A stretch of DNA of 32,000 bases from Candidatus Saccharimonadota bacterium. GTDB lineage: Bacteria > Patescibacteriota > Microgenomatia > UBA1406 > GWC2-37-13. Every line of letters starts with the position of its first letter. Positions within the stretch are counted from its first letter, which is position 1. Where the stretch lies: NCBI GenBank assembly GCA_016700135.1, contig CP065004.1, positions 1,170,001 to 1,202,000 on the forward strand. The letters run 5' to 3'. Made by a program: the position numbers and the translations under genes. The notes beneath the pieces were generated by a model, which had not been told where the DNA came from, searched no databases, and saw nothing but the letters and a program-made list of their open reading frames with translations. This document shows, one piece after another, positions 2,257 through 30,017 of the stretch.

Positions 2257-3001
2257 GTTTCATCTGTTTGATAAATAACGTACTTCGAACGAGAAATGAG
2301 TGAAAGCTCATCAAAAATGAATACACAAAGCCCGCAGTTCCGTCCTTTAAGCCTCCTTTGATCACATATGTGTAAAGAAACTTCCCGATGGGAAAAGCAA
2401 CTATCTCATACATATTAGTTCGCTTATTCAGCAAGAATAATTCATCGGCGCGGATCTGACTGTACGTATTTATGTGCTGCAGGAACTCATGTATCGTCTG
2501 GTGAGGGTAATGCTCAATAAAACCGTCCAACGATGATATTCGGCCGACAGTGGTCCATTCTTCATGTATCGAACCTTTCCATAAACCGGATCCTTTCTTC
2601 ATCAGGCGAATAATTCCGCGTTTATAAACTTTTGCAACCTCTCCATGCTCGAGGACCCTTCCCATAAACCGGTCCCGTCTTCGCAGATAGTACGCATCGG
2701 CACTCGGTTGTTCCATCTCGTGCCTGATATTTGCCCGCAGATCAGGACTGATTTCTTCATCCGCATCAAGATACAACAGCCAATTGCCTTTCGCCTGCTC
2801 AGCTCCGAGATTTCGCAAATTTGAAAAGTTTCCGGAAGTTTTGTCATATATCACCCGTGCTCCGGCTTCATGTGCTATTTCTCCCGTTTCATCGGTTGAA
2901 TTGTTGTCTATAAGAAGGAGTTCGTCACAAAAAGAAAGTGATTTTAATGCCTGCTGTACAATCTCAGCCTCGTTTTTTGCTATAACAATACCGGTAAGCA
3001 T
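2249..3001 (-). CDS. Family 2 glycosyltransferase
   Basis: 250-aa ORF. The N-terminus GIVIAKNEAEIVQQALKSLSFCDELLLIDNNSTDETGEIA and the downstream LYLDADE (DxD-like) are typical of GT2. Confidence 0.9.
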   Translation of the reverse strand: MLTGIVIAKNEAEIVQQALKSLSFCDELLLIDNNSTDETGEIAHEAGARVIYDKTSGNFSNLRNLGAEQAKGNWLLYLDADEEISPDLRANIRHEMEQPSADAYYLRRRDRFMGRVLEHGEVAKVYKRGIIRLMKKGSGLWKGSIHEEWTTVGRISSLDGFIEHYPHQTIHEFLQHINTYSQIRADELFLLNKRTNMYEIVAFPIGKFLYTYVIKGGLKDGTAGFVYSFLMSFHSFLVRSTLFIKQMKHE

Positions 3002-3003
3002 GA

Positions 3004-3258
3004 TTATAGTTCTATTTTACTCGTATCAAGAGTATCAAGGAAGTACCAAATACCGTGAAGAAGACCGTATAAAGCAATTGAGGCAATAACGAATATAATG
3101 ATCCAAATAGTCATCCTTTGACCTTGCGTTTTTGTCATTTTGAGTTTGTCATCATATTCTATCGCAGCAAAAAAGATTGCATGAAACAAATCGAGAACAA
3201 ACCGTTTGAGAAAATTAAAAACAGTCCACATATCAATTGCAGTTAACGCTAACAGCAT
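3004..3258 (-). CDS. Small hypothetical membrane protein (85 aa from ATG 3258; shorter starts possible)
   Basis: The ORF-track entry 3004..3324 runs into the tRNA, so it is trimmed to the first ATG downstream of the tRNA 3' end (3258, 4 nt after the tRNA). It has a C-terminal TM helix (MTIWIIIFVIASIALYGLLHGIWYF). Its stop is 2 nt from the GT2 start. Confidence 0.4.
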   Translation of the reverse strand: MLLALTAIDMWTVFNFLKRFVLDLFHAIFFAAIEYDDKLKMTKTQGQRMTIWIIIFVIASIALYGLLHGIWYFLDTLDTSKIEL

Positions 3259-3262
3259 ATAT

Positions 3263-3439
3263 TGGTCGTACCTTGACTTGAACCAGGGACCTTCCGAACC
3301 TGCCCACCGCTTTTGTGCACACATCTGGACTTGAACCAGAGACCTTTCGAATGTGAATCGAATGCTCTACCAACTGAGCTATGTGTGCTATGGCAGGCGG
3401 GTGTGAATCGAACGCTCTAGCCAACTGAGCTATACGACC
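3263..3439 (-). tRNA. Interrupted tRNA-Val(CAC)-like gene: 5' half 3439-3402, 3' half 3298-3263, with a 103-nt insert (3401-3299) at anticodon-loop position 37/38 that contains another tRNA
   Basis: The halves join into a 74-nt cloverleaf: GGTCGTA-TA-GCTC-AGTTGGCTA-GAGC-G-TTCGA-TTCACA|T-TCGGA-AGGTC-CCTGG-TTCAAGT-CAAGG-TACGACC-A. The acceptor stem pairs 7/7 and the anticodon stem 5/5 (one G.U). There is one G.A mismatch at 52-62. Whether it is functional or a relic is unknown. Confidence 0.6.
3316..3388 (-). tRNA. tRNA-Val (anticodon CAC), nested within the interrupted tRNA
   Basis: Perfect 73-nt cloverleaf on the minus strand: GCACACA-TA-GCTC-AGTTGGTA-GAGC-A-TTCGA-TTCACAT-TCGAA-AGGTC-TCTGG-TTCAAGT-CCAGA-TGTGTGC-A. 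CCA is not encoded. Confidence 0.95.
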
Positions 3440-3452
3440 AAAGACTAGAAAG

Positions 3453-3461
3453 ATTATATCA
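3453..3461 (-). promoter_or_regulatory. Extended -10 element TGaTATAAT upstream of the tRNA-Val locus
   Basis: The reverse complement of 3453-3461 is TGATATAAT, 13 nt upstream of the outer tRNA 5' end (3439). Confidence 0.45.
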
Positions 3462-5342: not shown

Positions 5343-6395
5343 CTATTGTTTAGGAGGTATCAGAGCCATTGCAATCATGAAAGTAATCATCGATGAACCT
5401 CCGTATGAGACAAACGGCAGCGTAATTCCCGCGATCGGCACAATGCCCAAATTCATACCGATATTGACCGCCGTTTGGACAATCATCATCACGGAAAAAC
5501 CCAGCAGATAATAAAATGAATACTGCTCATCATAGTCCCTTCCGTGCATATGTCTGAACATTTGTATAAAAACAAAAAGGAAAAAAATAATGTAGAGAAA
5601 AATAACAATAAAACCACCGATAAACCCGAATTGCTCGACAAGTGATGAAAAAGCAAAGTCAGTGTGGTACTCCGGTAAAAACGAAAGCTGTGACTGCTTG
5701 CCTAAACCCAGACCTTTCCCGAACAAATTCCCGGATCCGACGGCAATATTTGCCTGAACCATATTGTAGGAGGTTCCGGAAGTGTCATGCTCAGGGTCCA
5801 TAAAACTCAAAATTCTTGCTTTTTGATAGTCATGCATTGCAATCCAGGCTACCGGGAGCAAACAAAGGAGAATCAGAAGGAATATCATGATGTGTCTTTT
5901 CGGAATGGAGGAATGAAGCGCCATGACAAAAAAGATTCCGAATACAATAATACTTGTTGCCAGATCAGGCTGTTTATATATGAAAAAAAACGGCAATAAT
6001 GTAAGCATCAGCGTTTTCAGAAATAATCTGCCGTTTTCAATCGGGTTATAGACTTTCGCAAAGATTGTTGAAAGGAAAACAATAAAGAATACTTTAAAGA
6101 TTTCAGAAGTCTGGAGCGGAAAAATATAAAGATCAAGCCATCTGCGTGATCCCTTGATGTCCATCCCGAAAAAAAATGTAATAATCAGGAGGATAAGCGA
6201 AAAAACATAAAAAAAGGAAGCATTCGACCGGAAAAAATGCTTGTGCATTTGGAGATAACGGATAACAAAGAAAAAAGCAATTCCGATCCCGAAATGCATT
6301 AGGGACGTCGTAACTAGATCAGGCCGAATCCCGAATAAATTGATCAGTCCGAAAAGGTAAATAAGCAGTATCGGAAGAAAATACACAAGTGACAT
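5343..6395 (-). CDS. rodA: SEDS-family peptidoglycan glycosyltransferase, RodA-like
   Basis: 350 aa, polytopic. GKGLGLGKQSQLSFLPEYHTDFAFSSLVEQFGFIGG and LPFVSYGGSSM match the RodA-type (Q.SQL.FLPE.HTDF) rather than the FtsW-type motif. Confidence 0.8.
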   Translation of the reverse strand: MSLVYFLPILLIYLFGLINLFGIRPDLVTTSLMHFGIGIAFFFVIRYLQMHKHFFRSNASFFYVFSLILLIITFFFGMDIKGSRRWLDLYIFPLQTSEIFKVFFIVFLSTIFAKVYNPIENGRLFLKTLMLTLLPFFFIYKQPDLATSIIVFGIFFVMALHSSIPKRHIMIFLLILLCLLPVAWIAMHDYQKARILSFMDPEHDTSGTSYNMVQANIAVGSGNLFGKGLGLGKQSQLSFLPEYHTDFAFSSLVEQFGFIGGFIVIFLYIIFFLFVFIQMFRHMHGRDYDEQYSFYYLLGFSVMMIVQTAVNIGMNLGIVPIAGITLPFVSYGGSSMITFMIAMALIPPKQ

Positions 6396-29504: not shown

Positions 29505-30017
29505 TTGCATATGATTGTAAAAAATAGAGACCAACGGGTAGCAGTACTTGTCGATGTACAAAACCTGTACTACTCGGGAAAAAACCTTTATAGTTCACGC
29601 GTAAATTACAAAAATCTTCTGACCCAGGTCGTACAGCGCAGAATTCTTACCCGGGCTATCGCATATGTCATCAATGCTGACGATACCAAAGAAAACGTCT
29701 TTTTTAATGCCCTGCATGAAGCCGGCTTTGAGGTAAAAGAAAAACCACTGCAGACATTTTACGGCGGTGCGAAGAAAGGAGATTGGGACTTAGGAATCGC
29801 TATGGATGCCATCAGACTGGGTAATAAAGTCGATTCAATCATTCTGGTCACGGGCGACGGAGACTTCAAACCCGTTGTTAACTATCTCCAGCAGGCATTG
29901 GGATGTCTTGTTGAAATTGCGGCGTTCAAGCGTACGGCAAACAAGGAACTTGTGGAGCTTGCAGATGATTTCACGAATATAGAAGAACATCAGAAGAGAC
30001 TCCTTTTTCGGATTTGA
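29505..30017 (+). CDS. NYN-domain (LabA/DUF88-like) predicted RNase
   Basis: VAVLVDVQNLYYS at the N-terminus and ILVTGDGDFKPVV. The track start is TTG 29505, and ATG 29511 is the likely start. Confidence 0.85.
   Translation: MHMIVKNRDQRVAVLVDVQNLYYSGKNLYSSRVNYKNLLTQVVQRRILTRAIAYVINADDTKENVFFNALHEAGFEVKEKPLQTFYGGAKKGDWDLGIAMDAIRLGNKVDSIILVTGDGDFKPVVNYLQQALGCLVEIAAFKRTANKELVELADDFTNIEEHQKRLLFRI

Follow-up and report, generated by a model that had tools for sequence, protein, structure and literature searches.

Elements with tyrosine integrases target transfer RNA (tRNA) genes, including their anticodon loops, and bring a replacement for the part of the gene that they displace. They are kilobases in length, encode the integrase, replace the 3' part of the tRNA and leave a direct repeat (attL/attR) behind. 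The palindromic elements of Rickettsia represent another class of mobile sequences, which are palindromic and GC-rich. Here we analyze a 32-kb stretch of contig CP065004.1, called the window as a whole, from a member of the Roizmanbacteria (Microgenomates, Candidate Phyla Radiation or CPR), in which one tRNA-Val(CAC) gene is nested inside another on the minus strand (3439 to 3263). The inner gene is carried by a 103-bp cassette with complementary ends. We interpret the nest as an early stage of tRNA gene replacement by a palindrome-ended mobile tRNA cassette, the family of which appears to live mainly in the CPR, and put the probability of this interpretation at roughly 0.8. The cassette differs from the integrase-type elements in having only 103 bp, no open reading frame (ORF), no integrase, inverted rather than direct repeats, and a whole tRNA with its own acceptor stem as the cargo. 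Comparison loci from other genomes are labelled L001 to L161.

The nearest analogues are the palindromic GC-rich mobile elements of AT-rich genomes. The GC clusters of yeast mitochondria are, like the cassette, short, GC-rich and hairpin-forming in an AT-richer genome, sporadically present at orthologous sites, non-autonomous, and found nested or merged (PMC4478555). They differ in that they carry no gene, duplicate an AG target and are mostly intergenic (PMC4478555), whereas the cassette encloses a complete tRNA gene, lies inside a tRNA gene of the same type, duplicates nothing and occurs in bacterial chromosomes across phyla. In Neurospora mitochondria, tRNA genes are flanked by GC-rich palindromes (Yin et al. 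1981, cited in PMC4478555); these share the association with tRNAs, but carry no gene and show no nesting of one tRNA in another. Compared with palindromic or inverted-repeat mobile elements in general, such as those resembling GC clusters or miniature inverted-repeat transposable elements, the cassette has the inverted repeats, the recurrent conserved ends and the presence/absence polymorphism, but not the target-site duplication.

Archaeal split tRNAs and bulge-helix-bulge introns share with the cassette the 37/38 position, the use of other loop positions and GC-rich complementary sequences beside the tRNA halves (PMC4033280). Archaeal introns are also proposed to move between tRNAs (PMC4033280), as the cassette would. 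The cassette differs from these archaeal systems in its bacterial host, its contiguous halves, the whole tRNA inside and the decay of the outer genes. It also lacks the bulge-helix-bulge: the stalk made by the insert ends runs directly into U38, positions 32-35 (UUCA) have no complement near the 3' end of the insert, inspection of the junctions gives no way to draw a central helix of 4 bp flanked by 3-nt bulges, and the predicted fold of the 177 nt contains no such motif. The Nanoarchaeum type of split tRNA does not fit either, as the halves are not separate genes but contiguous parts of a single transcription unit under one promoter, and the GC-rich arms form no bulge-helix-bulge. The group I introns in bacterial tRNA genes likewise occupy the anticodon loop, are mobile and do no harm to the host gene, but their catalytic core requires at least ~100 nt and the introns exceed 200 nt (PMC4033280), while the cassette has only 30 nt that are not tRNA. 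An Rfam search of the window at the gathering thresholds finds two tRNAs only. Both of these intron types had been set aside by an earlier reading based on the sequence only (the sequence-only reading), and we agree in both cases. A group I intron avoids harm by splicing, the cassette would do so by replacement.

Anatomy of the nested locus

The locus starts with the 5' half of the outer tRNA-Val(CAC) (3402-3439, minus strand as all parts of the nest; 38 nt, positions 1-37 with a 9-nt D loop). This remnant of the resident gene is identical at 38/38 positions to the intact genes of the relatives L130 and L004, and is part of the tRNA that ARAGORN finds after excision of the insert. The cassette (3299-3401) follows, between A37 and U38, with no target bases duplicated or deleted. 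It consists of the 5' arm CCCGCCTGCC (3392-3401), ATA, the inner tRNA-Val(CAC) (3316-3388), CAAAAGC and the 3' arm GGTGGGCAGG (3299-3308), which pairs with the 5' arm; 73 of its 103 nt are tRNA. The 5' arm is the reverse complement of GGCAGGCGGG, the Y end of the cassette family described below, and the plus-strand reading of the 3' arm, CCTGCCCACC, matched its X end in our motif census. The 3' half of the outer gene (3263-3298, 36 nt, positions 38-73) completes the nest and has two derived changes. The inner tRNA has A73 and no encoded CCA, every stem is perfect, and it scores 73.1 bits against RF00005 of Rfam, compared with 71.3 for the intact orthologues of the slot; ARAGORN calls it as well.

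The sequence-only reading had described a complete 73-nt tRNA-Val(CAC) in a 103-nt insert exactly at 37/38, and the sequence, ARAGORN and Rfam all bear this out. It had also stated that removal of the insert restores a 74-nt cloverleaf with one flaw. The joined halves are indeed called by ARAGORN as a 74-nt tRNA-Val(cac), with the acceptor stem paired 7/7, the D stem 4/4 and the anticodon stem 5/5 (one U.G), and with a single G.A mismatch in the T stem. On the native sequence both Rfam and, with introns allowed, ARAGORN give the inner tRNA alone, and the outer gene emerges only once the inner one is masked; in the intron-tolerant mode it is then called as tRNA-Val(cac) with a 103-nt intron. 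The inner and outer genes differ at 4/7 acceptor pairs, all of them compensated, and also in the D loop and the T stem. The outer gene is hence no recent copy of the inner one, as had been claimed, but the resident ancestral gene holding a foreign one.

The insert ends can form the 10-bp helix proposed from the sequence, with 7 Watson-Crick pairs, 2 G.U and 1 C.A, but the pairing register proposed is not the one favoured by the minimum-free-energy fold of the 177 nt, which uses the shifted register CCCGCC/GGUGGG plus 2 bp. In this predicted fold (z = -3.2) the acceptor helix of the outer gene, a stalk and the cloverleaf of the inner tRNA are all retained. The only promoter-like signal available to both tRNAs is an extended -10 element, TGaTATAAT (3453-3461, minus strand), which we read from the sequence 13 nt upstream of the outer tRNA start. 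A generic -35/-10 scan missed it because the -35 is weak. TGnTATAAT is found at the same place in L130, L002, L005 and L156.

The nested tRNA-Val(CAC) locus is real and unusual. An independent Logan assembly (L161, SRR31558899) matches it base for base and has a single-nucleotide polymorphism in the flank, so the nest is not an assembly artefact, and the chimeric contig that had been named as a possible refutation is unlikely. It is not a chance similarity either, because the outer halves match the uninterrupted orthologous tRNA at 72/74 positions.

The tRNA slot in related genomes

The order of the genes around the nest is conserved among the relatives, i.e. GT2, a small ORF, the tRNA, the signal peptidase (SPase), ParB-HTH, L27, L21, RodA and IleRS, while the tRNA content of the slot varies. 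An uninterrupted gene of the outer type is present in L130 and L129, whose SPases are 88% identical to that of the window, and in L004 (74%). The inner type stands alone in L001-L003 (78%; 79% for P0002 by BLASTP) and in L153 (81%). The three independent assemblies L156-L158 (75%) have a second nest at the same junction. In L154 (78%) the first 12 nt of the outer type and a D-loop remnant are followed by several small GC hairpins and then by another complete tRNA-Val(CAC). L159 and L160 (75%) have a tRNA-Val(CAC) between CCCGCCTG and CAGGCAGCGG without outer halves. Overall, at least six tRNA-Val(CAC) sequences are found in this one syntenic slot, and the intact, nested, remnant and replaced stages are all seen.

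The comparison of filled and empty sites shows that the window equals an intact L130-type gene plus exactly 103 bp. The filled state is found in the window and L161 versus the empty one in L130, L129 and L004, and the second nest is filled in L156-L158 versus empty in L005 and L006. The outer genes of the nearest relative L130 and the more distant L004 are identical to each other (74/74), although the SPases of these two are only 74% identical and their flanks are 66-79% identical to that of the window. The lineages with the inner type and with the outer type are intermixed by SPase identity, and therefore the cargo has moved horizontally.

In the second nest a different tRNA-Val(CAC) lies at the identical junction, TTCACA|...|T, and the arms CCTGCCCGCC...GGCAGGGCGGG have the reverse-complement arrangement of the window arms. 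In the outer gene there, of the L005 type, the 5' side of the D arm is missing, and three GC-rich pieces have been added: a pair of small hairpins and, in the T loop, a stretch of 22 nt.

We aligned the tRNA-Val(CAC) genes of the slot and scored their cloverleaf pairs, 105 pair-cells in total, to see how the window's outer copy compares. The live genes have 17 pair-cells changed on both sides, i.e. compensated. The only one-sided change among the slot genes is A to G at 3294 of the window, which turns a U-A pair of the anticodon stem into U.G, and the only broken pair is the G.A made from a T-stem G-C by C to A at 3274. Both derived changes are in the 3' half of the outer copy and weaken its stems, while its 5' half is unchanged. 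The constraint on the outer copy seems relaxed, because the two stem-weakening changes are confined to the interrupted copy and the intact gene is invariant over the deeper divergence between L130 and L004. What became of the outer genes in L156 and L154 agrees with this. Alignment of the orthologous locus had been proposed as a check on the stems; the outer gene is conserved and uninterrupted in the relatives, but in the window its stems have two changes without compensation.

An interruption together with uncompensated, stem-weakening changes relative to functional orthologues is what one expects of a pseudogene, and the outer copy shows both. The best-supported reading is that the outer gene is a young relic in early decay. 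The sequence-only reading had named three fates for the halves, i.e. ligation, function without ligation, and decay. The comparative evidence favours the decaying relic, because non-compensated changes among the slot tRNAs are confined to the outer copy of the window, because an older nest, its outer gene wrecked, occupies the slot of L156-L158, and because 17/29 outer genes elsewhere, among the matches listed, could not be restored by one excision.

A different type of insertion may have used the same gene in L004. At 2750-2870 (minus strand) of this locus, about 90 bp after the intact outer-type tRNA, there is a second copy of its last 18 nt plus CATC (CAAGTCCAGGTACGACCACATC). This direct repeat beside an intact tRNA is the classical integrase signature, in contrast to the window, and suggests that the 3' end of the gene once received an integrase-type insertion, of which an att-like remnant is left.

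The 3' boundary of the slot is marked by the small ORF (3004-3231, minus strand), which encodes 75 amino acids without a Pfam match, starts 32 nt past the outer tRNA, precedes the GT2 gene and lies outside the element. It is called in L161 and L003, its start ATGTGGAC is kept in L002, L004, L130 and L154, and the ORF itself is kept in all the relatives examined. The mechanical ORF list lets it run on into the tRNA (3004-3324), almost certainly in error. The neighbours in the window have housekeeping roles (L21, L27, RodA, IleRS and the dcw cluster). A single gene of the window is RNA-nuclease-like; it encodes an NYN-domain protein with a predicted PIN-like ribonuclease fold (29505-30017, plus strand), and no evidence links it to the tRNA locus. 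A similarity search against phage- and plasmid-type sequences gave generic tRNA matches only.

A family of hairpin-ended units across genomes

Taking one genome per species, we searched for pairs of tRNA D-arm motifs that are too close to each other for tandem genes, and collected at least 120 loci. In most of them a complete tRNA comes after a 5' tRNA fragment. In at least about 30 genomes both outer halves, with matching acceptor strands, surround an inner tRNA that is complete and has the same amino-acid type, usually also the same anticodon. Based on the record labels these same-type nests are mostly from the CPR, i.e. Saccharibacteria, Nomura-, Uhr-, Falkow-, Moranii-, Doudna- and Berkelbacteria, Kazan and Parcubacteria; the others come from a small number of Bacteroidota (L091, L106) and from metagenome bins with loose labels.

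The ends of the units recur. In one subfamily the ends are X = CC(T/C)GCCCG(C/A)C and Y = GGCAGGCGGG (L027, L086, L091, L093, L098, L106, L125 and L156), and the window carries this X/Y pair on the opposite strand. A related subfamily ends in CYTG-CCCYG...CRGGG-TGAA, in either orientation. Over 25 units, spread across several phyla of the CPR and the Bacteroidota, have one or the other kind of ends. The arms are 10 bp and imperfect in the window, and 6-19 bp and often perfect in the other units. In the Flavobacteriaceae and Lentimicrobiaceae (L091:3560-3760 and L106) the arms CCTGCCCGCC...GGCAGGCGGG bracket a tRNA-Val(GAC) in a tRNA-Val(GAC), inserted at the boundary of D loop and D stem; therefore the cassette family is not confined to the CPR.

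The units are inserted at the boundary of D loop and D stem, at 35/36, at 37/38 and in the T loop. The insertion is precise, with no target bases duplicated or lost, wherever an intact counterpart or a restorable outer gene is available (the window vs L130, L156 vs L005, and in L091, L098 and L125). Among the matches listed, one precise excision restores a tRNA of the same type in 12/29 outer genes and fails to do so in 13/29, and the other 4/29 have no recognizable 3' half. Hairpin-only units also occur inside outer genes that are already interrupted (L035, L100, L116, L156). We tried several known target rules on the junctions. A tyrosine-recombinase lox/att core, with the arm junction matching GGG-N-CCC anticodon stems, fits L042, but the window stem TTCGA/TCGAA does not follow it. 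None of the rules taken from other elements, i.e. duplication of a 2-bp CA/TG target, the CTTG/GAAC target of the IS91 type and a Helitron-like A|T insertion, fits all junctions.

The sequence-only reading had argued from the G.U pairs that the stalk makes sense only as RNA in the tRNA-sense transcript. The family does not support this. The helix of X with Y has one G.U and one C.A on either strand. Across 28 units the arms pair equally well in the sense and the antisense strands (14 vs 14, Wilcoxon p = 0.15), so the G.U asymmetry of the stalk is not significant as proof of a function at the RNA level. The same end pair is flipped relative to the tRNA in L156, L125, L027 and L091. Both orientations together with the lack of a sense bias favour a unit that is recognized as DNA.

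A separate family, with tRNA-Ile(TAT) in tRNA-Ile(TAT), is found in Saccharibacteria/Patescibacteria (L012:1176-1400, L080:567-790, and L126 on the minus strand at ~5370-5590). The inserts are homologous to each other, have 148-151 nt and the motifs AGTGA, GAAC/TG and ATATCGTAGATATAC, and loop bases are duplicated at both junctions. All three outer genes (3/3) are intact, and the stalks have G.U pairs in the sense strand only. The inner and outer genes group differently between the genomes, which suggests that this family is mobile too. It is a better candidate for a function at the RNA level than the family of the window.

Several other arrangements came up in the scans. A three-level nest of tRNA-Val(TAC) is found in a Moraniibacteriota genome (L097, minus strand, ~2000-2500): the innermost copy is intact, the second is cut in the anticodon loop and the third in the D loop, every level is bounded by hairpin arms of its own, and the locus includes an additional hairpin-only unit. 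Another hairpin-only unit, CTTG-CCCTGTTAAAT...ATTTAACTGGG-TGAA at L021:5276-5329, has no tRNA nearby, and its flanks AGAAA and TTTCT are complementary, as if it had landed in the loop of another stem-loop. Tandem arrays lie directly upstream of a complete tRNA in L024, L094, L112, L032, L127, L046, L119 and L082, from Chitinophagaceae, Patescibacteria, Desulfatiglandaceae, Woesearchaeota and others. They repeat the first 20-35 nt of the tRNA with a short GC hairpin at a period of 52-79 nt in up to 9 copies, and may come from the same process repeated or from a separate one. The end motifs found isolated away from tRNAs in the motif census are in ordinary coding sequence and have no partner arm. 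Viral contigs gave 69 matches to the arm pattern, all without a tRNA and without arm complementarity, and the general nested pattern turned up no such cassette in them either. In the phage loci L136, L139, L144 and L146 the tRNAs have their own first ~20 nt copied upstream, followed by a conserved GGAAAGC-hairpin-GACC segment, and several of them have long anticodon-loop inserts. These phage arrangements are unrelated to the CPR unit.

Explanations of the nest and their implications

We propose that the slot originally held a single tRNA-Val(CAC) 13 nt downstream of the extended -10 element, as in the closest relative. A 103-bp cassette, with a complete tRNA-Val(CAC) from another lineage between 10-bp GC-rich imperfect inverted repeats, then entered precisely between A37 and U38. 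As the cassette has no promoter, the inner tRNA would be transcribed from the resident one within a precursor of at least 177 nt, and be released in the way that tRNAs generally are, through a cut by RNase P, 3' trimming and addition of CCA. Its excision would leave the outer halves as by-products, with the outer gene a decaying pseudogene and the inner one presumably the working gene. In general, the units would target loop-coding positions of tRNA genes of the same type, and be tolerated because they supply a substitute tRNA. They are most likely non-autonomous hairpin elements mobilized in trans by an enzyme; in addition or instead, DNA that a cell has taken up may recombine homologously through the conserved tRNA halves and so carry the units from one lineage to another. 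Such recombination could also account for the same-type nesting, although selection alone would suffice, since in genomes with single-copy tRNAs only a cassette that makes good the gene it destroys would survive.

A number of observations weigh against this proposal. There is no mobility enzyme in the 32-kb window, which has housekeeping genes only, and no autonomous copy among the fetched loci. No cassette was found outside a tRNA gene in our searches, and a free donor form was not seen. The lone inner-type genes of L002 and L153 have no arms, unlike the cargo of the window. In one subfamily an extra TT before CA at the 5' junction (L042, L085, L097, L100) misfits a simple insertion. The outer copy in the window has only two changes and is still recognized as a tRNA after excision. 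Our search pattern requires both D arms on the same strand, which biases the cargo orientation and the spectrum of tRNA types that we see.

Could the outer gene still be functional, with the insert as an intron or a split-tRNA linker? Once RNase P and RNase Z had freed the inner tRNA, the halves would remain paired by way of the stalk and of the acceptor and anticodon stems, and would either be trimmed and ligated, e.g. by RtcB, or work unligated, giving two tRNA-Val(CAC) per transcript. The exact 37/38 position, the cloverleaf that ARAGORN accepts after precise excision, the predicted 177-nt fold with its outer acceptor helix, stalk and inner cloverleaf (z = -3.2), and the 12/29 other nests among the matches listed that are likewise restorable all agree with such a function, as do the intact outer genes and sense-only G.U stalks of the separate Ile(TAT) family. 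We nevertheless consider it very unlikely for the window. Both derived changes weaken stems that are invariant in the intact orthologues, L156 shows in the same slot what becomes of such outer genes, the insert has neither a bulge-helix-bulge nor a group I core, the end motif occurs in both orientations on stalks without a sense bias, and a second tRNA with the identical anticodon brings no obvious selective benefit. The only tRNA introns known in bacteria belong to the self-splicing group I class (PMC4033280). EndA and RtcB were not found among the 27 ORFs of at least 110 amino acids in the window, which covers 32 kb of the genome. We know of no splicing endonuclease in bacteria.

Mobility through RNA would be an unlikely route as well: a transcript of the hairpin plus tRNA would reverse-splice into tRNA loops and, after reverse transcription, recombine into the gene. 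The targets are all single-stranded loops of a folded tRNA (D, anticodon at 35/36 and 37/38, and T), the insertion is precise without duplication, and transposition of tRNA introns has been proposed for the Thermoproteales (cited in PMC4033280 and PMC10714607). The cargo strand is also that of the target in every case found, but the search pattern is biased towards such cases. The asymmetric ends in both orientations (the window vs L156, L125 and L027) would require two RNAs, and no ribozyme core or reverse transcriptase was found nearby. Finally, the nest might involve no mobile element at all, and have arisen by local duplication, template switching or illegitimate recombination between tRNA-Val genes with the repeats as a by-product. 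Small GC-rich hairpins do accumulate in dead outer genes (L154, L156), possibly by template switching, and the non-CPR loci L029, L055, L066, L068 and L113 have identical inner and outer acceptor stems and resemble local duplications. In the window, however, the D loop, the T stem and 4/7 acceptor pairs are not the same in the two genes, and the sister lineage has no inner type. The same junction was struck twice in Roizmanbacteria with a different cargo each time. The same 10-nt end pair recurs in Roizmanbacteria, Parcubacteria, Doudnabacteria and Bacteroidota, and independent accidents would not give the same pair, so that a local accident is largely refuted and we regard it as extremely improbable.

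Replacement by a mobile cassette is thus the explanation we prefer. We lean slightly towards a broader statement, namely that CPR bacteria and some Bacteroidota harbour a so far undescribed class of minimal mobile hairpin-ended units whose only cargo is a complete tRNA gene, which home into loops of tRNA genes of the same type, usurp the promoter, and kill and replace the resident gene, leading to serial turnover with nests of up to three levels and to horizontal exchange of tRNA alleles through a new enzyme or route. There is a fair chance that the mechanism itself is new. Replacement of a tRNA gene from within by a cassette is apparently undescribed; we found no description of nested tRNA genes or of such cassettes in the literature we searched, which is not proof of novelty.

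The standard finders overlook or mis-call tRNA genes that are nested or fragmentary, as seen here with ARAGORN, which shows the inner gene alone. The locus has a superficial likeness to the archaeal split and intron-containing tRNAs, which are used in arguments on the origin of tRNA. An intron or split-tRNA reading of the window is unlikely, and a recent DNA insertion would keep this bacterial case out of that debate. The tRNA genes are usually seen as markers that are stable and inherited vertically, and as passive sites on which integrative elements land, while the slot studied here shows turnover with visible intermediates. If the cassette family is truly mobile, it would achieve harmlessness by supplying a whole substitute gene, rather than by splicing out as introns do or by repairing the 3' end of the target as integrative elements do. 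It would then also provide a route by which organisms with single-copy tRNA sets could exchange tRNA alleles horizontally.

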